A stretch of 64,000 bases of DNA, taken from the IMG/VR virus record IMGVR_UViG_3300046787_000327, positions 48,952-112,951 of that record. One strand, written 5' to 3'. Source of the stretch: a virus. Below, in pieces: positions 27,369-58,891 of the stretch. The notes beneath the pieces are model-generated. The model made no database searches and was not told where the DNA came from. It saw nothing but the letters and a program-made list of their open reading frames with translations. The position numbers and the translations under genes were made by a program. Positions within the stretch are counted from its first letter, which is position 1. Every line of letters starts with the position of its first letter.

Positions 27369-27891
27369 AGAAGAGTTAGTTAAGCATCTTGACCAAGTAA
27401 ATTTGGTTGTTGAAGAATATTTAAAGGGCAATGACCCAACACAGATTTCAAAGCAACTGACTATTCCAAGACAAAGAGTTGTTGCGTATATTGATGAGTG
27501 GAAGGTCAATGCATCTAACAATGCTGCTATTCGTGCTCGTGCAAAAGAAGCACTCGCAGGTGCAGACCAGCACTACGGCATTCTGATTACAAAATCTTAT
27601 GAAGTTATTGATGAAGCATCTATGACTAATAATCTTAGTGCAAAGACTGCTGCAATTAAACTTGTTATGGACATTGAGTCTAAGCGTATCGATATGCTTC
27701 AAAAGGCTGGACTACTTGAGAACAAAGAGTTGGCTGATGAAATGGTACAGATCGAAAAGCGTCAAGAAGTTCTTGTTGGTATCCTTAAAGATATCGCATC
27801 TACTCACCCAGAGGTAAGAGACTTAATCATGAGAAGATTATCTTCTATCTCTAAAGAAGATGAAGTGATTACGGTAATCGCTGATGTTTGA
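27358..27891 (+). CDS. Terminase small subunit (putative)
   Basis: N-terminal HTH followed by helices; coupled to terL. Confidence 0.6.
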   Translation: MTTEEELVKHLDQVNLVVEEYLKGNDPTQISKQLTIPRQRVVAYIDEWKVNASNNAAIRARAKEALAGADQHYGILITKSYEVIDEASMTNNLSAKTAAIKLVMDIESKRIDMLQKAGLLENKELADEMVQIEKRQEVLVGILKDIASTHPEVRDLIMRRLSSISKEDEVITVIADV

Positions 27892-29653
27892 TGATTTTCT
27901 AGAGGCACTTAAAGATAATAACTTTAAGGAGATGCCTGTCAATGCTAAGACATTCGTTGAGGGTGAAGACTATCTAGGTCAGCCACCACTATCAGATGTC
28001 CAGTACGACATTGTAGAGGCCATGAGCCAGATCTACAAACTAGAAGATGTGATCGAAATTCTGGGGGAAACAGAGGGAACTCGCTACTACAAGAAGTATA
28101 CAAAGAACGAAATCATCCTACAACTTGGTAAGGGATCTGGTAAGGACTTCACATCTACAGTAGCATGTGCATACATTGTATACAAACTACTATGTCTAAA
28201 GGATCCAGCAAGATACTTTGGAAAGCCATCTGGCGATGCTATTGATATTATCAATGTGGCTATTAACGCACAGCAGGCTAAGAATGTTTTCTTTAAGGGA
28301 TTCAAGACTAAGATTGAAAGATCACCGTGGTTTGCAGGAAAGTACAATGCCAAGGCTGAGTCGATTGAGTTTGATGATTCTATTACGGTTTACTCTGGTC
28401 ACTCAGAGCGTGAGTCCCATGAGGGCTTGAACCTTATCCTTGCAGTACTCGATGAGATTTCTGGTTTTGCACAGGAAGTTGGAACAGGTAATGAGCAGGG
28501 AAAGACTGCTGACAATATCTATAAGGCATTCCGTGCTTCTGTAGACTCTCGTTTCCCAGACCTTGGAAAGGTTGCATTGCTATCCTTCCCTCGTTATCCT
28601 GGAGACTTTATCTCTCAAAAGTATGATGATGTTATTGCTGAGAAAGAAGTAATTAACTACACTCACAAGTTTATTATGAATCCAGATCTTCCAGAAGATG
28701 CTACTGGCAACTCTCTTGAAATCAACTGGGATGAAGACACAATTGTATCTTACAAGTACCCAGGGGTGTTTGCACTAAAGCGTCCTACATGGATTGTTAA
28801 CCCTACAAGAAAAATTGATGACTTTAAGTTAGCATTCTACACAGACCTTGGCGATGCTATGCAACGCTTTGCTTGTGTTCCTACATACTCATCCGATGCT
28901 TTTTTTAAGCAGATTGAGAAGGTTCGCACATGCATGACACTGAGGAACCCACTTGATCAGTTTAGAAGATTTGATGAAACCTTTAAGCCAGATCCAGATA
29001 AGACATACTATATCCACGCCGACCTTGCTCAGAAGCATGACAAGTGTGCAGTAGCAATTGCACATGTGGATAAGTGGGTAAATATTCAGGTAATTAAAGA
29101 TTACGCACAGGTAGCACCAGTAGTTGTAGTAGATGCAGTTGCATACTGGGAGCCAAAGGTAGAAGGTCCTGTAAACCTTTCAGAGGTCAAGCAATGGATT
29201 CAAAACCTTCGTAGACTTGGATTCAACATTGGTATGGTTTCATTTGACCGTTGGCAGTCATTTGATATCCAGAATGAATTGAAGCAGGTTGGAATGAGAA
29301 CTGAGACTGTTTCTGTTGCTAAAAAGCACTACGAAGACATGGCCATGCTTGTGTATGAGGAAAGACTTGCAATGCCAGCAATTGATCTTTTGTTTGAAGA
29401 GTTGACAGAACTTAAGATCATGAAGAATAATAGAGTTGACCACCCACGAAAATCCTCTAAGGACTTAGCGGATGCTGTGTGTGGGGCAATCTTTGGGGCA
29501 ATATCACATACCCCTAAAGACAATAATCTTGAGGTAGAGATTCATACTTTTAGGGATAGACCTAAAGTTGACAGCCCTATGTCAGGTGTGATAGAATATA
29601 AACCTATGCCAGATGATGTAAAAGATTATTTGGATAGATTCAATCTAATATAG
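27884..29653 (+). CDS. terL: Terminase large subunit
   Basis: Walker A GKGSGKD, Walker B AVLDE, nuclease IHADLA...SFDRWQ...DHP...KDLADA. Confidence 0.92.
   Translation: MFDDFLEALKDNNFKEMPVNAKTFVEGEDYLGQPPLSDVQYDIVEAMSQIYKLEDVIEILGETEGTRYYKKYTKNEIILQLGKGSGKDFTSTVACAYIVYKLLCLKDPARYFGKPSGDAIDIINVAINAQQAKNVFFKGFKTKIERSPWFAGKYNAKAESIEFDDSITVYSGHSERESHEGLNLILAVLDEISGFAQEVGTGNEQGKTADNIYKAFRASVDSRFPDLGKVALLSFPRYPGDFISQKYDDVIAEKEVINYTHKFIMNPDLPEDATGNSLEINWDEDTIVSYKYPGVFALKRPTWIVNPTRKIDDFKLAFYTDLGDAMQRFACVPTYSSDAFFKQIEKVRTCMTLRNPLDQFRRFDETFKPDPDKTYYIHADLAQKHDKCAVAIAHVDKWVNIQVIKDYAQVAPVVVVDAVAYWEPKVEGPVNLSEVKQWIQNLRRLGFNIGMVSFDRWQSFDIQNELKQVGMRTETVSVAKKHYEDMAMLVYEERLAMPAIDLLFEELTELKIMKNNRVDHPRKSSKDLADAVCGAIFGAISHTPKDNNLEVEIHTFRDRPKVDSPMSGVIEYKPMPDDVKDYLDRFNLI
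29568..29597 (+). promoter_or_regulatory. SigA-type promoter inside terL for the surface-protein gene
   Basis: TTGACA-18 nt-TAGAAT; AAGGAG SD before 29668. Confidence 0.6.
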
Positions 29654-29667
29654 AAATAAGGAGCAAA

Positions 29668-31362
29668 ATGAATTCATTTAAGAAAATCGCCCTAGGTCTT
29701 GCTGCAGCAATGTCTTTTGGCGTAATGTCAGCACTTCCGACAAGTGCTGCTGTGAATGCACCCACTCTAACAATTGACTCAGCAACAGATGCTGTATCAA
29801 CTGGAGAGTCTGCAACTGCAGTAGTAACCTTGTCATTTGTGTCACAAACATCAGCAGATACGGCAACAATCATCTCTGCAATGTTTACACAGCCAACAGG
29901 TTCAGCAAAGTCTGCAACCTTCTCACTACTTGAGACATCTACAGCAACTGCAGCAATCGCAGGTAATCGTGTTTCAGCAGATGTTAACTCAACAGTTAAC
30001 ACACCAACATATGTAACAGCAAAGTTCTTAGTAACTTTGGATACACCAGCGGTAGCAGGTACATACGAGGCTCGTATTCTTACTACAAGCCCAATCAACG
30101 GTCCATCAGTTACATGGACTGTAACAGTTAAGGCAGCGGATCTAACACCTGCAGCCACAACTACAACATCAATTCTTAATAAGGGTGAGACAGTCTCTGC
30201 AACAGCAGATGAAGCAGTATATGCTCCAAAGGCAACTGCAACTGATGCATCAGCAGTTATTGCTGTTACACCTAAGAATGCAGCAGGTGGATCTGCAACT
30301 GAGTCAATTCTTGCAACTGTAACAGGTTCAGGACTTATCGGTTACGGAACAAACCCTGCAACAATCTCAGCACAGGGTCGTGCACTTGTAATCCCAGCAG
30401 GGAACCACATTGGTGTATTTGCTGACGGTACAGCAGGAGTATCAACAGTTACTCTTACAACTCTTGCAGGTGCAGTAATTGCAACAGAGAAGGTCACATT
30501 CTATGGCGACATTGCTTCAATCGTTGCAACCCCAGTTAAGTCTGTTATTGCAACAGGCTCAAATGTTTCAGTGGTTAAGGCAGTTGCATACGATGCATCT
30601 GGCGTAACAGTTGGGGCAGGAACACTTAATGCTTACTCAAGCGATGTCTCTGTAGTATCTGATTCAGGTACAGCAGCAACTATCGTTAATGGTGAGGCAG
30701 TATTTACACTTACTGGTGTAAAGGCTGGTGGAGTTGCTCTTACAGTTAAGTCAGGAACAGTTTCTGCAATTGCAGTTCCAGTTCGTGTAGAAGGAACACT
30801 TTCAGCAGTTAAGATTGCATTTGATAAGTCTGAGTATCTTCCAGGAGAAGCAGCAACAATTACTGTAACTCCAGTTGATGCAGCAGGACTTCCATTGTCT
30901 GCAAAGACATATGCTAATCTGTTTGCAACAGGGGGAATCACTTCATCTTACGCATTTGGATCAGGCTCAGATGTTCTAACTGGAGTTTCTGTAACAACAG
31001 ACACATCAACAGTTAAGACATTCAAGGTATTCATGCCATTGACTGAGACTGAAGTTAAGGTAACTGCAACTGGTGGAACTTCACTTCCACTTGCTGGACA
31101 GGTCGTAGTATCTGCAACAGCAAAGGTTACTAACAAGGCATCAGATGCAGCAAAGGAAGCAGCAGAGGCTGCAAAGGCTGCAACACTAGCAGCAGAAGCA
31201 GCAACAAAGGCTGCCGATGCAGCAACAGTAAAGGCTCAGGAAGCAGTAACAGCAGTTGCTACTCTTTCAGCACAGGTTGCTACATTAATCTCTTCACTTA
31301 AGAAGCAGATTACATCACTTACCGCACTGGTCATTAAGATCCAGAAGAAGGTTCGTGCATAA
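29668..31362 (+). CDS. Secreted Ala/Thr/Val-rich S-layer-like surface protein with Ig-like domains
   Basis: Sec signal peptide MNSFKKIALGLAAAMSFGV; ATV-rich beta domains; C-terminal coiled coil ending QITSLTALVIKIQKKVRA. Confidence 0.75.
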   Translation: MNSFKKIALGLAAAMSFGVMSALPTSAAVNAPTLTIDSATDAVSTGESATAVVTLSFVSQTSADTATIISAMFTQPTGSAKSATFSLLETSTATAAIAGNRVSADVNSTVNTPTYVTAKFLVTLDTPAVAGTYEARILTTSPINGPSVTWTVTVKAADLTPAATTTTSILNKGETVSATADEAVYAPKATATDASAVIAVTPKNAAGGSATESILATVTGSGLIGYGTNPATISAQGRALVIPAGNHIGVFADGTAGVSTVTLTTLAGAVIATEKVTFYGDIASIVATPVKSVIATGSNVSVVKAVAYDASGVTVGAGTLNAYSSDVSVVSDSGTAATIVNGEAVFTLTGVKAGGVALTVKSGTVSAIAVPVRVEGTLSAVKIAFDKSEYLPGEAATITVTPVDAAGLPLSAKTYANLFATGGITSSYAFGSGSDVLTGVSVTTDTSTVKTFKVFMPLTETEVKVTATGGTSLPLAGQVVVSATAKVTNKASDAAKEAAEAAKAATLAAEAATKAADAATVKAQEAVTAVATLSAQVATLISSLKKQITSLTALVIKIQKKVRA

Positions 31363-31377
31363 CTAAACCAACAACTA

Positions 31378-31410
31378 AGGGGGTTAGCCTAAGTGCTAGC
31401 CCTCTTTTTT
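31378..31410 (+). terminator. Rho-independent terminator
   Basis: AGGGGGTTAGC-6 nt loop-GCTAGCCCTCT followed by a T run. Confidence 0.85.
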
Positions 31411-31467
31411 GTGCAATAAAATGGTATAATCATCCTATCAGACATCCTGTCTGCAAGGGGGAAGGTT

Positions 31468-33645
31468 ATCAAAAGATTAGCACTAAGATCAGCATTTATA
31501 ACAGCATTTCTAGCCCTGTGGTTACTATTATTTCCACAGGATGCGGCTCACGCTGATGAGATCAGTACTGTCCAAATAACCCCGTCAGAATCAAGCACAG
31601 TAACAGTAATAGTATTAACACCAACAGCCACTATTGAGGCAGCACAGACTGCAATAACTCAGGCTGAAACTGCCACGGCAGTCATACAAACCCAAGTAGA
31701 AGCCATTACAGGACCTTTAGAGACCGTTACAGCCACTATCACACAGGCTCAGAACTCTATTACACAGGCACAAGCAGTAGTCGATAGTGCTATTGTGGCT
31801 CTCTCTCAGGTAGACGGTGCAACAGTTCTTGTTGCTGATGCCCAGGAAAATCTTATTATTGCAGAAATAGCGGTAGAGGCACAGACAGAAGTGGTAGTAG
31901 ATAAAATACAGGTGGTTGAATCAGCAACTGCCATAGTAAATGAGAACACATCCGCTGGCCTAACTATGACAGTTATCCATAATCCTGGATACAACAATGC
32001 CCCTCCACTTAATGTTGGCACAGTTGTTAGAGTAGTTACTGATACCAATGGGATCAATGAGAATTTTGATGCTAATGCAAATTTAGTAATGGCAAATGAT
32101 GACTTCAAAGTAAAATGGGAAGGTGTTTGGACACCAACTCATACTGGAACAACATATCTATACGCACCCGCTGATGATGGAGTGCAGATATATTTAGATG
32201 GACAACTTATAATTAATGACTGGTTTGACAAGGGTGGTGGAGGATCCATCGCTGGAGTCCAGACTGTTGCAGGAACAGGAAAAGATTTTACACTCTGGTA
32301 CTATGAAAATGGTGGCGGTGCAAATGTTGTTTTAATGAAAAATACTGGAAACGGATGGTATGTAATTCCAGGATCTGAATTCAGCACATCTAGTGCTTCA
32401 CCAGAACAAATAGAAACACTTCAAACAGCACAAACAAATCTTCAAATTGCACAAGCAACACTTGACATTCTTGAGGCAGACCTTACAGCAGCAGAAGAAG
32501 ATTTAATTGAGGCAGAAGAAAACTTACAAGATGCTCAGGAAGATGTAAATGTTGCAATGGAAGCAGTAGGCAATGCAATCTCTACTATGAATGCAAGTGT
32601 GACAGAAGCACAAAGTTTAGTTATGCAAACATTACAAGCAGAAGAAGCAGAAAGAGCAAGAATTGCTGAAGAAGCCAGACAAGCAGAGTTAGCAAGACAA
32701 GCAGCAATCGCTGCAGAAAATGCAAGAATAGCAGCACAACAAGCATACGAAGCAGAGCAGTCTAGAATAGCAGCAGAAGCAGCAAGAGTTAAGGCAGAAG
32801 CAGAAGCGAAGGCAGCAGCAGAGGCTGCAGCAAAAGCAGAGGCAGATAGAATTGCTGCTGAGGAAGCAGCCAAGAAAGCAGAGGCTGATCGTATAGCAGC
32901 AGAGGAAGCAGCAGCAAAAGCCAAAGCAGAAGCAGAAAAAGCAGAAGCAGACAAGAAGGAAGCAGAATTAAAAGCAGCAAAAGCAGCAGAAGAAAAGGCT
33001 AAGGCAGAGGCAGATGCTAAGTTAAAAGCAGAAGAGGATGCAAAGAAGTTAGCAGAACAAAAGGCTGCAGAAGAGGCTAAGGCAAAGGCTGAAGAGGACA
33101 AAGCAAAGGCAGAGGCAGAGGCTAAGAAGGCAGAACAAGACAAACTAGATAAGTTAGCAGAAGAAGCCAAAAAAGGAAAAGAATTATCTACTGAAGAAAA
33201 AGCGGTAGTTGTAGAAGCATTGGTAGCAGATTTAAAGCCAGGAGAATCTATCTCAGCAGCACAGGTAGTTGCATCTGGAGTTTCTTATGCAGACCTACCA
33301 CCAGAGACACCCATTGAAGTAAGAACATCTGAGTCTGGTGAAGTTCTAGTTATTACAGCAGAAGTAGCAGCAAATGTTGAACTGGTTCAAGATCCAGGAG
33401 CATTGCTAGAAGCAGCATTTACAGACCCTGGAGCAGCCTTAGCAGCACTAGGAAGTATTGGGGCAGACATGACCCCAGGAGAAAGAGAAGAGGCAACCAA
33501 CATGGTTGTAGCAACAGTAGTTGCCACAGGAGCAGCCCTTAATGCTGTAGGTTTGGCTACTGGAGGATCAGCACCCGCTGCTCCATCTGGTGGATCAACA
33601 AGTGGGGCAAATTCAGGTGGTTCAAGGAGGAATGAAAGATGGTAA
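31468..33645 (+). CDS. Secreted PA14-domain protein with a TolA-like Ala/Glu/Lys coiled coil; probable ATC start
   Basis: PA14 motifs (F-x-V-x-W-x-G, ADDGVQIYLDG, YYENGGG); AEAEAK repeats. Frame is open from 31420 with a signal peptide starting at ATC 31468; C-terminal hydrophobic segment. Confidence 0.8.
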   Translation: MKRLALRSAFITAFLALWLLLFPQDAAHADEISTVQITPSESSTVTVIVLTPTATIEAAQTAITQAETATAVIQTQVEAITGPLETVTATITQAQNSITQAQAVVDSAIVALSQVDGATVLVADAQENLIIAEIAVEAQTEVVVDKIQVVESATAIVNENTSAGLTMTVIHNPGYNNAPPLNVGTVVRVVTDTNGINENFDANANLVMANDDFKVKWEGVWTPTHTGTTYLYAPADDGVQIYLDGQLIINDWFDKGGGGSIAGVQTVAGTGKDFTLWYYENGGGANVVLMKNTGNGWYVIPGSEFSTSSASPEQIETLQTAQTNLQIAQATLDILEADLTAAEEDLIEAEENLQDAQEDVNVAMEAVGNAISTMNASVTEAQSLVMQTLQAEEAERARIAEEARQAELARQAAIAAENARIAAQQAYEAEQSRIAAEAARVKAEAEAKAAAEAAAKAEADRIAAEEAAKKAEADRIAAEEAAAKAKAEAEKAEADKKEAELKAAKAAEEKAKAEADAKLKAEEDAKKLAEQKAAEEAKAKAEEDKAKAEAEAKKAEQDKLDKLAEEAKKGKELSTEEKAVVVEALVADLKPGESISAAQVVASGVSYADLPPETPIEVRTSESGEVLVITAEVAANVELVQDPGALLEAAFTDPGAALAALGSIGADMTPGEREEATNMVVATVVATGAALNAVGLATGGSAPAAPSGGSTSGANSGGSRRNERW

Positions 33646-33809
33646 AACTAATTAAGGATATTCTTGATCAGCAATGGACTCTCCTAGGCATGTTTATCGC
33701 TTGGGTTGTTTTGGACGGTAGTGCAAAAACAGTTGTTGGTTATGGAATTATTATAACAATGATCACATGGATACTTAGTTATCCAATTAGAAATAGAGAG
33801 GAGGACTAA
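33639..33809 (+). CDS. Small two-TM membrane protein (not in ORF track)
   Basis: 56 aa MVKLIKDILDQQWTLLGMFIAWVVLDGSAK...; AGGAGG SD. Confidence 0.7.
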   Translation: MVKLIKDILDQQWTLLGMFIAWVVLDGSAKTVVGYGIIITMITWILSYPIRNREED

Positions 33810-33811
33810 AT

Positions 33812-34111
33812 ATGAATAGTATCACAAACATTTGGAACATCCTTATGCGTATCGTTGCAGTATTTGCAGCAAACGCACTTGCAGTAATTGGAGCAGGAGC
33901 AATCGCAGGTATCTCAGTAGCAAAGGCTATGACGGTTGCTGGACTTAGTGCAGTAGCAGTTGTAGTTGAGAAGTTGGCTCGTGCATTTATGGATGACGGA
34001 AAACTTACAAGAGACGAGATTAACGCAGCATTTTCTACCACAGATAAAAATGCAATAACGATACAAGATGTTGCAGTTGAAAAGCGCAGAGCACGATCAA
34101 AGGCAGCATAA
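33812..34111 (+). CDS. Membrane protein (holin-like), EF-hand-like DDGKLTRDE
   Basis: Two hydrophobic helices; GAGGAGG SD. Confidence 0.6.
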   Translation: MNSITNIWNILMRIVAVFAANALAVIGAGAIAGISVAKAMTVAGLSAVAVVVEKLARAFMDDGKLTRDEINAAFSTTDKNAITIQDVAVEKRRARSKAA

Positions 34112-34133
34112 TTAAGCATTAAAACACGCTTAC

Positions 34134-34185
34134 TTGACAGCCCCTTCTAGAACTGGTATACTTGATATATCGCACCTAGAAGGGG
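34134..34185 (+). promoter_or_regulatory. SigA promoter overlapped by a 10-bp inverted repeat covering the SD
   Basis: TTGACA(34134)-17-TATACT(34157); CCCCTTCTAG(34141)/CTAGAAGGGG(34176). Confidence 0.7.
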
Positions 34186-34192
34186 TTCTTGC

Positions 34193-34723
34193 ATGACTTG
34201 TATTGCTGTAGTTCGTGATGAATTAAATAATAAGATCTATATGGCTGGTGATCGTGGTGCTTCAGATAGTAGTACTATTCTATCATTAACTGCCCCAAAA
34301 GTTTGGAAACTTGGACCATACTTACTAGGATATGCTGGGTCAATGGACGGAGAGCGTCTTCGCTATAACTTTAATCCGTATGTGCCAGACATCAAGGACA
34401 CAGATAAGTTTATGCAAACTAAATTTATTAAACAACTACGCCAATTTTATAATGACTGGTGGGTCGATACAAGTAAGGACTCAGATTTTGGACTAATTGT
34501 TGCAATTCGTGGTGAGATATACGAGCACAGTTCTGCAGATATGTCTTTATCTAAATATACTTTGCCATTCTTAGCAATGGGTTCTGGATCAGATTTTGCT
34601 ATGGGACACCTTGATGCAACTCAAAAAGTTAAAGATCATCGCAAGCGTGTTGTTGGAGCAGTAAATTCAGCAATTAAATTTTCTCCAAGTTGTCAAGGTC
34701 CAGTTGACGTAGTAAGCATTTAA
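34193..34723 (+). CDS. HslV/proteasome-beta-like Ntn threonine protease
   Basis: N-terminal M-T-C-I, AGD, conserved Lys, GYAGS and AMGSG motifs. Confidence 0.8.
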   Translation: MTCIAVVRDELNNKIYMAGDRGASDSSTILSLTAPKVWKLGPYLLGYAGSMDGERLRYNFNPYVPDIKDTDKFMQTKFIKQLRQFYNDWWVDTSKDSDFGLIVAIRGEIYEHSSADMSLSKYTLPFLAMGSGSDFAMGHLDATQKVKDHRKRVVGAVNSAIKFSPSCQGPVDVVSI

Positions 34724-34738
34724 GGGTATACTTATAAT

Positions 34739-34933
34739 ATGAACGAAGAGTTATCAATAGAAGAACAAGAGTTTGGTATTTGGATTACCAACGGTATTGA
34801 GCGGGGATGGATCACAGAACCGTATTGTGATACTCATGATGGTGGATACCAGTACATGAGTGAAGAAGAGATTGAAGAGTGGGACCAAGGTGGCGACCCA
34901 TGTTGTCATGTCGTAAGACTGATGATTTCGTAA
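34739..34933 (+). CDS. Hypothetical acidic Cys/His protein
   Basis: CDTHDG...DPCCH; TATACT immediately upstream (leaderless). Confidence 0.6.
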   Translation: MNEELSIEEQEFGIWITNGIERGWITEPYCDTHDGGYQYMSEEEIEEWDQGGDPCCHVVRLMIS

Positions 34934-34948
34934 TAGAAAAGGAATAAA

Positions 34949-35905
34949 ATGAAGAAGACTATCCTAGCAGTACTATCAGCAGCAATGTTGTTTTCAGTGG
35001 CAAGTCCAGCACAAGCAGAAGATCAGAAAGTTTTAGCGATCATTGATACTGCTATTAATTCTGACAACTTCCCATCAGTAATCTATGAGGCATGCTTTAC
35101 TGCTTCTAAGCCAAGCGGTTGTTCAAATGGCAATCTTTTTATGGAGGGCAAGGGAGCAGGAAAGTCGCCAGTTCCAGCATCACTTAACAGTACTACCTAT
35201 CACGGAGACAGTATGGTCAAGGCAGCACTTGCATCAAACCCTAACCTAAAAATTGTTTTTGTAAGAGTTTCAGATGTTTCTGCTAATGGCAATGGAGCAA
35301 TTTTTGCTAAGTCTCTTATTTCTGCAATTGAGTGGGTATCAAATAATGCTGATAAGCATAGCATTGATGCGGTCTCTATTAGTCTGTCTGGTGTAAGTAA
35401 CTCTGTGGATGTAGCAAATGCATCAGTTAAGGCAACTGCATTTTCACCTAATTGCACCAATACCAATGTTATTAATGCTGTTTCATCACTATCATCAAAG
35501 AATGTACCAACCTTCGCTGCAACAGGCAACAACGGGTCTAAGACTGTTATTGGTTTCCCAGCATGTATTCCAGGTGTAATTGGAGTCGGTGCACTATCAA
35601 ATCAAACAGATGGAGCAGACAAGTTAGGTGAGACAGCAACCAATAGAGGCCCAGGTCTAGATGTTGTTTCTAACGGCGCAATTAATATCACAAAGTATAA
35701 TGGTTCACCTATGACCCTTAGTGGTTCATCAGGAGCAAATGTTGTTACGGCATCTACATACCTTAACAAGAATACATATGCTACTTTTGCTGAGTATGTA
35801 GAAAAACTCTCAAAGGTGTCAGTTAAGTTCCTTGACTACAAGGATCCAAAGACGAATGCATTTGTTTGGGAGCCAGTACGCCTTCTACCAATTAGTTCTA
35901 ACTAA
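34949..35905 (+). CDS. Secreted subtilisin-like (S8) peptidase
   Basis: Signal peptide; AIIDTA, HG, AATGN, FPAC, SGSS motifs in S8 order. Confidence 0.8.
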   Translation: MKKTILAVLSAAMLFSVASPAQAEDQKVLAIIDTAINSDNFPSVIYEACFTASKPSGCSNGNLFMEGKGAGKSPVPASLNSTTYHGDSMVKAALASNPNLKIVFVRVSDVSANGNGAIFAKSLISAIEWVSNNADKHSIDAVSISLSGVSNSVDVANASVKATAFSPNCTNTNVINAVSSLSSKNVPTFAATGNNGSKTVIGFPACIPGVIGVGALSNQTDGADKLGETATNRGPGLDVVSNGAINITKYNGSPMTLSGSSGANVVTASTYLNKNTYATFAEYVEKLSKVSVKFLDYKDPKTNAFVWEPVRLLPISSN

Positions 35906-35910
35906 TAAAA

Positions 35911-35937
35911 AGTCCTGGGCATGACTATAAACTGCCT
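35911..35937 (+). ncRNA. H-type pseudoknot motif, copy 1
   Basis: AGTC-CTGGGCAT-GACT-ATAAAC-TGCCT. Confidence 0.65.
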
Positions 35938-36493
35938 ACTTTAATCTTAAGAATGTTGTCATTGAATACCTTGTTCCATCGTATACTTCCTTGACTCCAT
36001 GGCGATACGCTTCATGTGCAGGGTGCAAAACTAAACTGTAGGCTTCTGGCTTAAACTCTAAGCCGATGTTAGGATAGAATATTTCTCCACCTTGGTAGTC
36101 ACCATTCAAGTAAAGAACAACTCCGTATTTGAACTTGGGGCCAAGACCAGAATCACTATGTGTTTTCATTAGTTGTCCTTTAGATGCCCTGTAAATGCCA
36201 CTGAACCCAGTGTATTCATAGATATCTTTGTTAAGTATTTTATTAATTTCTTTTTGAATTTTAACAAATAGATCATTAACAAGTTTTTGTTTTTCTGTAT
36301 CAAATCCTTCACACTGATCCAAAAGAAGGATTCTATCTTCCCACTCATTGTGTTCATCTCTATCTGTATTATTATACTTTGCCCACTCTTCTCTAGTAGC
36401 ACTTTTTGCTAGACCTGCCAAAGATAAGGCATCGTTAGGTGTTATAAAATTTTTTATTACAAAAATGTTAGGATCAGGATTTGTTATTATCAT
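35936..36493 (-). CDS. 2OG-Fe(II) oxygenase (prolyl-hydroxylase-like)
   Basis: HSD...VLYLNGDYQGGE...HGVKEV..GTRY; likely leaderless start at 36493. Confidence 0.88.
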   Translation of the reverse strand: MIITNPDPNIFVIKNFITPNDALSLAGLAKSATREEWAKYNNTDRDEHNEWEDRILLLDQCEGFDTEKQKLVNDLFVKIQKEINKILNKDIYEYTGFSGIYRASKGQLMKTHSDSGLGPKFKYGVVLYLNGDYQGGEIFYPNIGLEFKPEAYSLVLHPAHEAYRHGVKEVYDGTRYSMTTFLRLK

Positions 36494-36522
36494 ACATATA
36501 GTATACACTGCCAAGTCACTAG

Positions 36523-36551
36523 TTGACAGGTATTATGCCATATGCTATAAT
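36523..36551 (+). promoter_or_regulatory. Consensus SigA promoter for the endolysin operon
   Basis: TTGACA-17-TATAAT with TG extension; AAGGAGG SD downstream. Confidence 0.8.
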
Positions 36552-36579
36552 TAACTAGAACTCAAAGGAGGCCATAACC

Positions 36580-37359
36580 ATGGCGGTAAAAGGATCAGTA
36601 GAAGCAATCATTGAGGTTGCCAAGAAAGAAGTTGGAACCATTGAAGGTCCAAAAGATAATGAAACTAAGTACGGAGCATGGATGAAGGTTAACTTCCAGC
36701 CATGGTGCCAGTCCTTTGTTTCTTGGTGTGCATCACAGGCTGGTGTAGCAAAGTTTCCAAAGTCTGCTTCAACAGTAGCAGCATCAGATCAGTTTAAGAA
36801 GGAGGGTCGTTGGGCAGATGCTCGTAATGACGATCCAACTCCAGGAGACTGGATTTATTTTGATTTCCCAGATGATGGTGTAAATCGTATTTCACACGTA
36901 GGTCTTTGCATCAAGAACAATGGTGATGGCACTATTCAAGTTATTGAAGGAAACACTTCAGGAACTGCTAAGGGAGACCAGCGAAATGGCGGAATGTGTG
37001 TAGAGAAGACTCGTGCATATGTAAAGAACAAGAAGGGCATTCTTAATGCTGTTGTAGGTTGGGGTCGTCCAGTCTATGCAGGAGAAGAAAATGCTCCGTT
37101 GCTTTCTAAGGCTACAACTGTTGCAGAAGCAAAGCCTGCATCAAAGACAGTAGCAAAGAAGTCTGCTGCATTTAAGCCACTTAAGAATGGCTCTAAGGGC
37201 ACTGGTGTAAAGACTATTCAGACACTTCTTGGCATTAAGGCTGATGGATCATTTGGTCCAGGCACTGCAAAGGCTGTTCAAGACTTCCAAAAGAAGGCGG
37301 GACTGCCAACAACAGGTATTGTTGATCAGGCTACGCTAAAGGCATTGAAGGCAAAGTAA
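36580..37359 (+). CDS. Endolysin: CHAP domain + peptidoglycan-binding domain
   Basis: PWCQSFVSW, SHVGL, IEGNT; C-terminal GSKG..VKTIQ..DGSFGPGT..AVQDFQ. Confidence 0.9.
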   Translation: MAVKGSVEAIIEVAKKEVGTIEGPKDNETKYGAWMKVNFQPWCQSFVSWCASQAGVAKFPKSASTVAASDQFKKEGRWADARNDDPTPGDWIYFDFPDDGVNRISHVGLCIKNNGDGTIQVIEGNTSGTAKGDQRNGGMCVEKTRAYVKNKKGILNAVVGWGRPVYAGEENAPLLSKATTVAEAKPASKTVAKKSAAFKPLKNGSKGTGVKTIQTLLGIKADGSFGPGTAKAVQDFQKKAGLPTTGIVDQATLKALKAK

Positions 37360-37559
37360 TGGAATCAACTAAGAGAACATTATTAAAGACAGCAAGTTGG
37401 GAAACTTTTCACCTTGTTGGTGTTGCTGGAGTAATTTATTTGTTTACTGGTGAATGGGAGTATGCAAGTCTTGGTGCTCTTTTGTATATTGGCTGGGAAG
37501 CAATCGGATACTTTCTTCATGAAAGAGTCTGGGCAAAGTTTGGGCATAAGGTGAAGTAA
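37359..37559 (+). CDS. DUF2061-like small membrane protein
   Basis: RTLLKTASW...YFLHERVW. Confidence 0.75.
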   Translation: MESTKRTLLKTASWETFHLVGVAGVIYLFTGEWEYASLGALLYIGWEAIGYFLHERVWAKFGHKVK

Positions 37560-47058: not shown

Positions 47059-47133
47059 TGGTAGCCCCAACGGGAATCGAACCCGTCTTGCCAGATTGAA
47101 AATCTGGAGTCCTAACCGATAGACGATAGGGCC
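47059..47133 (-). tRNA. tRNA-Glu(TTC), CCA encoded
   Basis: Cloverleaf; anticodon arm CCAGA-TTTTCAA-TCTGG; GTTCGA T-loop. Confidence 0.93.
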
Positions 47134-47137
47134 TTAG

Positions 47138-47217
47138 TCCGTCATCTTGGAATCGAACCAAGCATGCTATCAGCGGGGGATTTACAGTCCCCTGTCCCAC
47201 CTTGGAACATATGACGG
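47138..47217 (-). tRNA. tRNA-Tyr(GTA)
   Basis: GGGGA-CTGTAAA-TCCCC; 13-nt variable region; acceptor CCGTCAT/ATGACGG. Confidence 0.88.
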
Positions 47218-47222
47218 AAAAG

Positions 47223-47305
47223 CGGAAATAATAGGATTCGAACCTATGGATCTTTCGATCTACGATTTAGCAAACCGTTGCATTCGGCCTCTCTGCCATA
47301 TTTCC
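47223..47305 (-). tRNA. tRNA-Ser(GCT)
   Basis: ACGGT-TTGCTAA-ATCGT; long variable arm; G73. Confidence 0.92.
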
Positions 47306-47310
47306 ATTTG

Positions 47311-47383
47311 CTGGGGATGCAGGCCTCGATCCTGCGACTTGCGAATTAACAGTTCGCCACTCTACCAACTGAGTTAATCCCCA
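47311..47383 (-). tRNA. tRNA-Asn(GTT)
   Basis: GCGAA-CTGTTAA-TTCGC; T-loop variant ATCGAGG. Confidence 0.9.
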
Positions 47384-47417
47384 TTGTATTAAAAGTATAT
47401 CATATTAAGTTGTTTTG

Positions 47418-47489
47418 CGTCCCCGATAGGATTCGAACCTATGACCTACACCTTAGAAGGGTGTCACTCTTCCGCTGAGTTACGGAGAC
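47418..47489 (-). tRNA. tRNA-Arg(TCT)
   Basis: ACACC-CTTCTAA-GGTGT. Confidence 0.93.
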
Positions 47490-47493
47490 TTAG

Positions 47494-47567
47494 TACAACA
47501 GGTAGGACTCGAACCTACGATAACCGAATTATGAGTTCGGGGCCTTAACCGACTTGGCTACTGTTGC
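47494..47567 (-). tRNA. tRNA with CAT anticodon (Ile2 or elongator Met)
   Basis: CCGAA-CTCATAA-TTCGG; lacks initiator features. Confidence 0.88.
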
Positions 47568-47580
47568 TTATTTAGTTTTG

Positions 47581-47651
47581 CTTCTCCCCTAGGACTCGAA
47601 CCTAGATTGCTGGTGCCAAAAACCAGAGTCCTGCCATTGGACGAAGGAGAA
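47581..47651 (-). tRNA. tRNA-Gln(TTG)
   Basis: CTGGT-TTTTGGC-ACCAG; U1:A72, G73. Confidence 0.9.
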
Positions 47652-47655
47652 TTAG

Positions 47656-47729
47656 TGCTTCTCACAGGACTTGAACCTGTAACACCCAGATCCTAAATCT
47701 GGTGCCTCTACCAATTGGGCTAGAGAAGC
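47656..47729 (-). tRNA. tRNA-Leu(TAG), short variable loop
   Basis: CCAGA-TTTAGGA-TCTGG; 5-nt variable region. Confidence 0.88.
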
Positions 47730-47743
47730 AATGTGAGCAGAAT

Positions 47744-47900
47744 GTGACTAGCATCCTCTCACTGACTCTACACTAGATATCCTACGAGTAGTAGCAACCA
47801 CGGACACACTCGTTCCTGCGGTAAGGTTAGTACCGTTGCTAGATTTCGGTCCAGTCCCTACATATCTTATTCACGATTGATATAACCGAGTGTTAGTCAC
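47744..47900. ncRNA. Candidate ~160-nt structured RNA inside the tRNA array
   Basis: Terminal stem GTGACTAGCA/TGTTAGTCAC; inner stems AGATAT/ATATCT, TAGCAAC/GTTGCTA, ACGAGT/ACTCGT. Confidence 0.55.
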
Positions 47901-47907
47901 TACACTG

Positions 47908-47978
47908 CAGAGTCTCTAGGAGTCGAACCTAGGCTTACCGCTTTGGAGACGGTAGTGCTTCCGTAACACTTAGACCCT
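47908..47978 (-). tRNA. tRNA-Trp(CCA)
   Basis: ACCGT-CTCCAAA-GCGGT. Confidence 0.9.
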
Positions 47979-47979
47979 A

Positions 47980-48053
47980 TGGAGCGAGTGACCAGACTCG
48001 AACTGGCACCTCCAACTTGGAAGGATGGCGTACTGCCCTTATACTACACTCGC
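47980..48053 (-). tRNA. tRNA-Gly(TCC), CCA encoded
   Basis: CCATC-CTTCCAA-GTTGG; GCG start, U73. Confidence 0.92.
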
Positions 48054-48076
48054 AATTACTCTATTTAATTATACTG

Positions 48077-48149
48077 TACCCGAAGTGAGATTCGAACTCA
48101 CGCTTGGTAAATTTTAAGTCTACTGCCTCTACCGCTGGGCTATTCGGGC
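48077..48149 (-). tRNA. tRNA-Leu(TAA), short variable loop
   Basis: GTAGA-CTTAAAA-TTTAC; 5-nt variable region. Confidence 0.88.
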
Positions 48150-58686: not shown

Positions 58687-58817
58687 GTATTAATTGTAGC
58701 AAAACCTGGGGAAAAATACAACTCTTCGTAAACCGTTTTGACCTAAAATGTATGTGATATGCATCACAGGGGACGTCCCCGCATTTTTATGCAGAGCCCT
58801 GCATATTTATTTACTTG

Positions 58818-58891
58818 CGATCCGTACGGGACTCGAACCCGTGACCTCCACCGTGACAGGGTGGCGAACTAACCAACTATTCTAACGGACC
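58818..58891 (-). tRNA. tRNA-Asp(GTC)
   Basis: CCACC-CTGTCAC-GGTGG; G73. Confidence 0.93.

Follow-up and report, generated by a model that had tools for sequence, protein, structure and literature searches.

In this study, we found that a 64,000-nucleotide stretch of viral DNA (referred to here as the window), which makes up the right-hand 64 kb of the 112,951-bp IMG/VR record IMGVR_UViG_3300046787_000327, contains a three-gene operon at 31422-34111 on the plus strand. The operon encodes a stalk protein of 725 amino acids (aa) that carries a PA14 lectin domain, a 56-aa protein with two hydrophobic segments, and a 99-aa protein resembling holins of the r1t type. The stalk protein and its 56-aa partner (the stalk pair), along with the holin, constitute a real, abundant and undescribed module. 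The reading we favour, at a probability of about 0.5, is that this operon is the membrane arm of the phage lysis machinery, with the stalk pair as a new glycan-binding accessory; the pair probably helps to break open the host envelope or to time its opening.

The record is read as a tailed-phage genome of ~113 kb, from a phage of freshwater acI Actinobacteria (Ca. Nanopelagicaceae). Its large terminase, encoded at 27884-29653, is ~54% identical to terminases of 130-kb Streptomyces phages, and the G+C content is ~40%. Structural genes are located upstream of the window and in its first 15 kb, and thus the stretch at 29668-37359, which had been flagged in an earlier note on this DNA, lies in the replication/accessory region and not among the virion genes. 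The host is most likely a member of Ca. Nanopelagicaceae (acI), since acI chromosomes and metagenome-assembled genomes (MAGs) hold the only cellular homologues of any gene in this stretch. No other freshwater bacterioplankton is as abundant as the acI Nanopelagicales, and little work has been done on their phages. Only two isolates of acI phages, of 39 kb, have been reported (PMC10202952). The numbers of metagenomic homologues, >1,000 for a 564-aa surface protein encoded just upstream of the stalk operon and >640 for the stalk C-terminus, indicate that the genes of the stretch are real.

All open reading frames (ORFs) listed in the earlier note for 29668-37359 are present where it placed them, and two genes have to be added, one for a 64-aa Cys/His protein (34739-34933) and one for a 2-oxoglutarate (2OG)-Fe(II) oxygenase (35936-36514, minus strand). 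The note had regarded the whole stretch as one coordinated island. Instead, it falls into at least five units, set apart by promoter-like sites and a terminator, and these units reshuffle among relatives. Because such sites separate the genes, we divide the stretch into the surface-protein gene, the stalk operon, an operon for an HslV-like peptidase, the 64-aa protein and a subtilase, the oxygenase gene, and an endolysin gene with a gene for a DUF2061 protein. The surface protein, the HslV-like/subtilase operon and the oxygenase are modules apart from the stalk operon.

The stalk protein and its membrane-protein partners

The features of the stalk operon are listed below, with transmembrane abbreviated as TM and nucleotides as nt.

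31422-31430, plus strand: extended -10 element TGGTATAAT, likely the stalk-operon promoter, conserved upstream in relatives
31468-33645, plus strand: stalk protein, 725 aa, ATC start (ORF, PA14 profile, hydropathy, AlphaFold2)
31468-31554, plus strand: signal peptide of the stalk protein, ending AHA/DE (hydropathy)
to about 31944, plus strand: N-terminal helix arm of the stalk protein
31945-32394, plus strand: PA14 lectin domain
32401-33147, plus strand: coiled coil with 21- and 42-nt repeats
about 33190-33462, plus strand: conserved small alpha/beta domain
33475-33561, plus strand: C-terminal TM helix (hydrophobic segment at residues 679-698)
33562-33642, plus strand: Gly/Ser tail ending SRRNERW
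33639-33809, plus strand: 56-aa protein with two hydrophobic segments; accompanies the stalk gene in all loci counted
33812-34111, plus strand: 99-aa holin-like protein of the r1t type (class II, two-TM), preceded by a strong Shine-Dalgarno sequence of its own (profiles, hydropathy)

The reading frame of the stalk gene is open from 31420, and ATC at 31468, with AAGGGGGAAGG just upstream, is its only usable start; no ATG, GTG or TTG occurs before the GTG at 31795. This GTG was rejected as the start, as a protein begun there would lack the signal peptide and 109 residues conserved among relatives. The 5' ends of the stalk genes (L002-L165) comprise 63 distinct sequences, of which 4 offer an ATG, 40 a GTG or TTG, and 16 nothing but ATT, ATC or ATA (ATH). 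The window itself was scored as 'none' in this count, and direct reading finds only ATH candidates in it. In several loci, the ATH start codon is preceded by an in-frame stop only a few codons away. Taken as a family, the start codons of the stalk genes look like the outcome of selection for low translation.

The PA14 domain (PF07691) is matched in Pfam with an E value of 1.3e-8 and 35.2 bits against a cutoff of 24, and most members of the family match it too. For residues 30-440, AlphaFold2 predicts a helix of ~105 residues, a beta-sandwich and a helix of >128 residues, with a predicted local distance difference test score (pLDDT) of 83. This model fits an antiparallel helical hairpin with the PA14 sandwich at its tip. 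By Foldseek, the sandwich matches PA14 domains of RsgI-type anti-sigma sensors, MpIBP, Epa1 and Flo5 (structures including 6qe7, 6qdi, 6x7j, 4af9 and 2xjr), with E values of 2e-10 to 1e-8. An ADDG motif and an NDWxDKGGGGS loop are invariant in the head. The DD motif is presumably the PA14 sugar/calcium site, and the head is predicted to bind sugar.

The Ala/Glu/Lys-rich coiled coil contains its 21- and 42-nt repeats in heptad phase and differs in length among relatives; tandem repeats are the likely source of the variation in length of the whole stalk protein, which has 718-907 aa in relatives. Tandem repeats of these two lengths in heptad phase are found both in the stalk coiled coil (32750-32951) and in the tail of the surface protein (31138-31227). 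Two identities suggested by profiles over the helical parts were rejected. TolA (TIGR02794) is matched at E 0.011 and 15 bits against a cutoff of 59, within the Ala/Glu/Lys-rich stalk, and SEC10/PgrA (TIGR04320) at E 1.5e-3 and 17.9 bits against a cutoff of 70, at residues 47-142 in the coiled coil.

The most conserved part of the stalk protein is its last 180 residues, comprising the alpha/beta domain, an Ala/Val/Gly-rich helix, the Gly/Ser linker and the basic end. In a full HMMER scan, this module was found in 382 protein clusters and always at the C-terminus. Its head is PA14 in most cases; a SUEL lectin takes this place in one case, and BspA-type leucine-rich repeats with DUF4082 in another. 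In the ESM Atlas, the C-terminal domain is matched by one unnamed viral cluster at 0.75. No LPXTG motif precedes the C-terminal hydrophobic segment. A search of cellular genomes with the stalk protein gave only coiled-coil noise, and tblastn against cultured phages gave no match. The envelope-spanning anatomy proposed in the earlier note fits these predictions, namely a cleaved signal peptide, a helix-PA14-helix arrangement, a long heptad stalk and a C-terminal TM helix. The resemblance to TolA/Q/R or spanins drawn there did not carry over into homology, as profile searches gave none to either, and the 56-aa and 99-aa proteins gave no matches to MotA_ExbB or ExbD profiles.

The 56-aa gene overlaps the stalk stop by 7 nt, its ATG being set within the TGG-TAA of the stalk gene (ATGGTAA), and in 33621-33645 the AGGAGG of the stalk Arg-Arg codons is the Shine-Dalgarno sequence of the 56-aa gene. 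Since the same DNA serves as the ribosome-binding site and overlapping start of the 56-aa gene, the conservation of SRRNERW is partly at the nucleotide level. Both the 56-aa gene and the 99-aa gene have strong ribosome-binding sites and ATG starts. The two small proteins are not paralogues, as judged from an hhalign probability of 0.2%.

The 99-aa protein has hydrophobic windows at residues 7-37 and 30-52 in a core of ~72 aa, that is, two TM helices joined by a short turn. Nine of 19 family members match phrog_443, annotated as 'holin' (best E 5e-7), and the family profile aligns with the ORF48 holin of Lactococcus phage r1t at an hhalign probability of 77% and E 2e-5, over 56 columns that cover both TM helices. 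All 19 aligned members also match phrog_26427, the best-matching PHROG family, which is labelled 'nuclease'; since the members have two TM helices, we infer that this label is wrong. The gene is of single copy type in the genome. Among cultured phages, the only match to the protein is in Actinomycetia phage DSL-LC01, where it occurs without a stalk gene. Considering its profiles and topology, we identify the 99-aa protein with moderate confidence as a putative r1t-type holin.

Conservation of the cassette among viral relatives

Profiles built for the C-terminus of the stalk protein and for each of the two small proteins were searched in 100 viral loci, including distant relatives fetched via two divergent members, and adjacency was counted in the 70 non-identical loci with downstream sequence (loci are denoted by L and a number). 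The stalk gene and the two small membrane-protein genes form a tightly conserved cassette, which bears out the grouping made in the earlier note. In every one of the 70 loci, the 56-aa gene directly follows, starting -15 to +26 nt from the end of the stalk ORF, and 45 also have the 99-aa gene after it. In nine loci from different lineages, the cassette is directly followed on the same strand by a gene for a CHAP or M23 endolysin. L127-L130 show overlaps among all four genes, the arrangement of a classical lysis cassette. A 99-aa-type gene lies directly beside an endolysin gene in L021, L051, L053-55, L127-130 and L163, and 2.4 kb from it in the window.

Where the 99-aa gene is missing, two other genes precede that of the endolysin, one for a Cys-rich lipoprotein (65-74 aa) and one for a two-TM protein (118-152 aa) whose tail is charged; the two-TM gene overlaps the endolysin start (L008:10449-11007; L022:5516-6146; L028:5530-6127; L036:10513-11140; L124:2159-2762). 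In other loci, an extra two-TM protein of 75 aa is inserted. A PHROG scan of the alternative fillers (lipoprotein, two-TM protein and DUF2061 protein) gave families of unknown function or nothing, and we call them holin-like by topology and position alone. A lipoprotein in a lysis cassette is unexpected for a phage of a presumed monoderm host. As some lineages have the stalk pair with no holin beside it, we take the pair to be the minimal unit, often but not always linked to lysis genes.

Arrangement of the surrounding units was compared in 58 related viral loci. The endolysin gene is found downstream, upstream or directly after the cassette, depending on the locus. The conservation of gene neighbourhood to which the earlier note had looked was found for the core of the stalk operon, and not for the surface protein and the subtilase, which some loci lack, or for the endolysin, whose position varies.

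A possible role at lysis and its alternatives

In the mechanism that we propose, the 99-aa r1t-type holin would permeabilise the membrane for the cytoplasmic CHAP endolysin (36580-37359). The 725-aa protein would be exported, its signal peptide would be cut, and it would be anchored by its C-terminal TM helix, so that the coiled coil, if fully helical, would hold the PA14 lectin ~35-40 nm out across the wall. The 56-aa protein, produced by coupled translation, would act as the membrane partner of the stalk protein. From the membrane, the stalk pair would grip a wall or surface glycopolymer, and would then either help to dismantle the layer left after peptidoglycan cutting or couple that layer to holin action. 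Gene structure, domain identities, topology signals and synteny are observed here, and the role in lysis, the binding of glycans and the formation of a complex are inferred. The earlier note had offered two options, one of which was help in breaching the envelope at lysis. This is the option that has evidence, in the r1t-holin-like 99-aa protein and in the endolysin genes directly after the cassette in several lineages.

Several known systems resemble the stalk pair in part. LysZ is encoded in corynephage and mycobacteriophage lysis cassettes with r1t-family holins and is needed against a lipoglycan barrier once peptidoglycan has been cut (10.1101/2025.06.24.661397). It combines a membrane anchor with a long helical body and often occurs together with the multi-TM protein LysY (McKitterick, Lyerly and Bernhardt, 10.1101/2025.06.24.661397). 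The likeness lies in an actinophage lysis cassette with an r1t-family holin, a membrane anchor with a long extracytoplasmic helix, and a small membrane partner. However, LysZ has an N-terminal disordered cytoplasmic part followed by a TM helix, and neither signal peptide nor lectin, whereas the stalk protein has a cleaved signal peptide, a PA14 tip and a C-terminal TM helix. In addition, LysY has four TM helices and the 56-aa partner two hydrophobic segments, and the host here is a non-mycolate acI bacterium. Because the topology differs and a lectin is added, the relation of the stalk protein to LysZ, as compared by context and shape, would be a functional analogy only.

Like the lambda Rz/Rz1 spanins, which act after the holin and the endolysin and reach the outermost layer, the stalk pair is encoded by overlapping coupled genes and has a coiled coil predicted to be membrane-anchored and to span the envelope. 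Unlike the i-spanin with its N-terminal TM helix and the o-spanin, an outer-membrane lipoprotein, the stalk protein ends in a lectin, and the presumed host has no outer membrane. It is not part of a two-component spanin, since it has a signal peptide and a C-terminal TM helix, and no lipobox gene was found in the window; some relatives do carry the Cys-rich lipoprotein gene after the 56-aa gene. The 99-aa protein shares with the r1t ORF48 holin two TM helices, a short turn and a GAGA-type small-residue helix, and differs in a longer charged C-terminal tail with an invariant DDGKL and in its non-adjacent endolysin in the window. RsgI anti-sigma factors (6qe7, 6qdi) and the PA14 adhesins MpIBP, Epa1 and Flo5 likewise have a PA14 sandwich on a membrane- or wall-anchored protein reading extracellular carbohydrate, but the stalk protein has another domain order and anchor, no anti-sigma domain and no adhesin repeats. 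PrgA/Sec10 of the enterococcal plasmid pCF10 is, like the stalk protein, encoded by a mobile element and holds a surface head on a long antiparallel coiled-coil stalk. PrgA differs from the stalk protein in its CAP-domain head, in its LPXTG wall anchor and in the absence of any link to lysis genes, and the TIGR04320 match is far under its cutoff.

If the stalk pair is a lysis accessory, it would be a new lysis factor of Gram-positive type and would join LysB, LysZ and the spanins in indicating that layers other than peptidoglycan matter at lysis, and its lectin head would indicate which surface glycopolymer matters in acI cells.

Several observations weigh against a role in lysis. The window endolysin gene lies 2.4 kb from the stalk operon, past another operon and a gene on the opposite strand. 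The 99-aa protein gave no match to the Pfam r1t holin at E values up to 10, the holin call being one of remote similarity, and the DUF2061 protein encoded next to the endolysin is a candidate for a second holin or an antiholin and would compete for this role. Terminase genes, with no adjoining holin, come after the stalk pair in some smaller phages, where an M23 lysin lies 2 kb off on the other strand. A wide structural search with the alpha/beta C-terminal domain of the stalk protein gave only helix matches, with Z scores of at most 5.5. The homologues of the stalk protein are all annotated as 'hypothetical', and none has a name.

The stalk pair might break a glycan layer, position or time the holin, or mask a receptor. 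The last of these, surface exclusion, we consider unlikely: the stalk lectin would stand above the wall and cover a glycan receptor or catch incoming phages, the 56-aa protein would only anchor it, and the proximity of the holin would be incidental. PrgA/Sec10, which excludes conjugation partners, and Llp of T5, which blocks FhuA, are models for such a role. Variable binding heads on a constant anchor, as in an arms race over surface ligands, and the lineages that have the stalk pair without a neighbouring holin are in keeping with exclusion, and the neighbouring slot with its host-like surface protein also suggests surface manipulation. The weak NCBIfam match to SEC10/PgrA points the same way, but at its score in the coiled coil composition may explain it, and the stalk protein lacks an LPXTG wall anchor. 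Moreover, exclusion genes rarely sit between the promoter and the holin of a lysis cassette, whereas holin-like genes come directly next in 45/70 loci and an endolysin follows in several lineages, and the near avoidance of ATG (4/63 5' ends) points to low expression, a poor fit for a surface coat. Low expression would suit a sensor of lysis timing resembling an antiholin. Its lectin would read an extracellular cue, such as the state of the glycan or attached phages, and signal to the holin via the stalk, the TM helix and the 56-aa partner, so that the forming of holes would be either delayed or set off. ATH or TTG/GTG starts in 57 of the 63 5' ends, with strong ATG starts in the downstream genes, fit a low-copy regulator. 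In structure, the head is most like the PA14 domains found in transmembrane anti-sigma sensors of the RsgI type (6qe7, 6qdi, E 2e-10), although the fold matches lectins equally well. The stalk TM helix is rich in small residues like the GAGA helix of the holin, which would permit helix packing. However, the cytoplasmic tail has only ~27 residues of Gly/Ser and a basic end, whose conservation stems partly from the overlapping ribosome-binding site, and the stalk pair occurs without an r1t-like holin in some lineages. We regard this alternative as quite unlikely, and the same low expectation applies to the stalk pair as a new type of lysis regulator, a wall-spanning lectin 'antenna' that would read surface glycans or bound phages and inform the holin via the small-residue TM helix. 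In that case, an extracellular cue would govern when the most abundant freshwater bacteria are lysed.

We find it very unlikely that the neighbouring units act together with the stalk pair, as the earlier note had pictured, with the subtilase stripping the host layer, the phage surface protein replacing it, and the stalk complex and the endolysin breaching what is left. The surface protein is indeed a true homologue of a host protein, with the same style of signal peptide and C-terminal tail, and the subtilase is secreted with its catalytic triad intact. The genes are neighbours in many relatives, and in L022 the surface-protein gene comes immediately after the group of HslV-like, subtilase and 64-aa genes. 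However, the five units have separate promoter-like sites and a terminator. The host-like protein occurs in only about one third of the 58 related loci, the slot being occupied elsewhere by unrelated secreted proteins with other tails, and L023, L035, L037, L038 and L042 keep the surface protein while lacking the subtilase. Nothing ties the subtilase to the surface protein, and the HslV-like peptidase is of cytoplasmic type with no export signal. No report of an S-layer in acI cells was found in the literature that we searched, and the surface protein contains no SLH or other S-layer domain.

The surface-protein gene and the other neighbouring units

The features outside the stalk operon are as follows.

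29568-29597, plus strand: promoter-like TTGACA-18-TAGAAT with upstream TG, 11/12 matches, a consensus match only; precedes the surface-protein gene
29668-31362, plus strand: secreted Ala/Thr-rich Ig-like surface protein, 564 aa (signal peptide by hydropathy; acI homologues)
31377-31406, plus strand: intrinsic terminator-like hairpin, 12 pairs followed by a T run; ends the surface-protein unit
34134-34190, plus strand: promoter-like TTGACA-17-TATACT that overlaps with an inverted repeat of 10 bp; separates the stalk operon from the peptidase operon
34193-34723, plus strand: HslV-like N-terminal nucleophile (Ntn) peptidase without signal peptide (phrog_1040, E 2e-21)
34739-34933, plus strand: 64-aa acidic protein with invariant C30, H33 and C55; always accompanies the HslV-like gene
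34949-35905, plus strand: secreted divergent subtilase (S8-like), 318 aa (signal peptide by hydropathy; catalytic residues)
35936-36514, minus strand: 2OG-Fe(II) oxygenase (Pfam/PHROG), with no envelope function shown
36523-36551, plus strand: perfect consensus sigma-70 promoter TTGACA-17-TATAAT with upstream TG, directly before the endolysin gene
36580-37359, plus strand: endolysin with CHAP and PG_binding_1 domains and no signal peptide (Pfam)
37359-37559, plus strand: DUF2061 membrane protein, 66 aa; its start overlaps the endolysin stop by 1 nt

The 564-aa surface protein gave no domain in a Pfam scan. It matches acI chromosomal proteins over its full length at 31-46% identity, and its C-terminal 32 aa, a shared coiled-coil/basic tail ending ...LVIKIQKKVRA, are 70-84% identical in many host proteins. 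With its signal peptide, variable Ig-like body and motif ...L(T/K)xLVIKIQKKV(K/R)A, it belongs to a family of acI surface proteins. In the host members (L060-L111), the signal peptide (MSTKTTFKR...) and the tail (...LTNLVIKIQKKVKA) are nearly identical, and the body of ~550 aa between them is hypervariable; Big_1 Ig-like repeats (E 1e-20) occur in one host relative. They number one or two per acI genome, and in several complete genomes they share a similar position, ~41-86 kb from the start of the record. The label 'S-layer-like' in the earlier note was in part apt, as the protein is a homologue of a host surface protein; as to the S-layer itself, the protein has no such domain, and our literature search found no paper reporting an acI S-layer. 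Both this label and 'TolA-like' reflect composition only, not homology.

In the sole host locus examined (L062:5986-7908), the surface gene lies between a gene for a sigma factor of extracytoplasmic function (ECF) type and a Wzy_C (O-antigen-ligase-like) gene, followed by genes for sugar-nucleotide enzymes. The Wzy_C and sugar-nucleotide enzyme genes adjoining it suggest that the host protein may be glycosylated, and we consider it a candidate for the role of a major glycosylated surface antigen or of a receptor for phages. The slot that follows the terminase gene is hypervariable, encoding secreted proteins of 330-564 aa with a shared MNSFKKI-type signal peptide (L002, L003, L015, L017, L024, L030, L044-L049). 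These proteins have at least three different basic C-terminal tails, with host homologues only for the ...VIKIQKKV type. For an alternative slot protein, the matches in cellular genomes were only three short MAG contigs, which are probably phage. By its sequence, the phage gene is a host-derived copy of a conserved hypervariable acI surface protein, located in a variable slot beside the terminase gene. The phage copy marks the host protein as a likely focus of the arms race between phage and host. This protein may serve as a receptor and is a candidate cause of microdiversity in acI bacteria. Since Planktophila strains are culturable, the ideas about the surface protein and the stalk pair are testable.

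The genes for the HslV-like peptidase, the subtilase and the 64-aa Cys/His protein travel together. Thr2, Lys36 and Gly130-Ser131-Gly132 of the HslV-like peptidase are invariant in 33 homologues, and NCBIfam equivalogs score far under their cutoffs. Its gene keeps close to the stalk cassette in distant lineages too, sometimes on the opposite strand, as in L144-L150, L153 and L165, where it is located ~0.05-3.6 kb away. D33, H85, N194 and S261 of the subtilase, which give the order of the catalytic triad and the oxyanion Asn, are invariant in 24 homologues. The subtilase matches subtilases in the PDB at E 2e-4 and PatA/PatG at E 3e-5, with no Pfam match at threshold, and nothing was found for it in cellular genomes.

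The adjacency of the lysin gene and the DUF2061 gene recurs in many relatives. The perfect sigma-70 consensus before the endolysin gene is unusual for a gene that would be expected to be late. Elsewhere in the window, 11 tRNA genes are clustered on the minus strand at 47059-48149, and a separate tRNA-Asp gene is located at 58817-58891.

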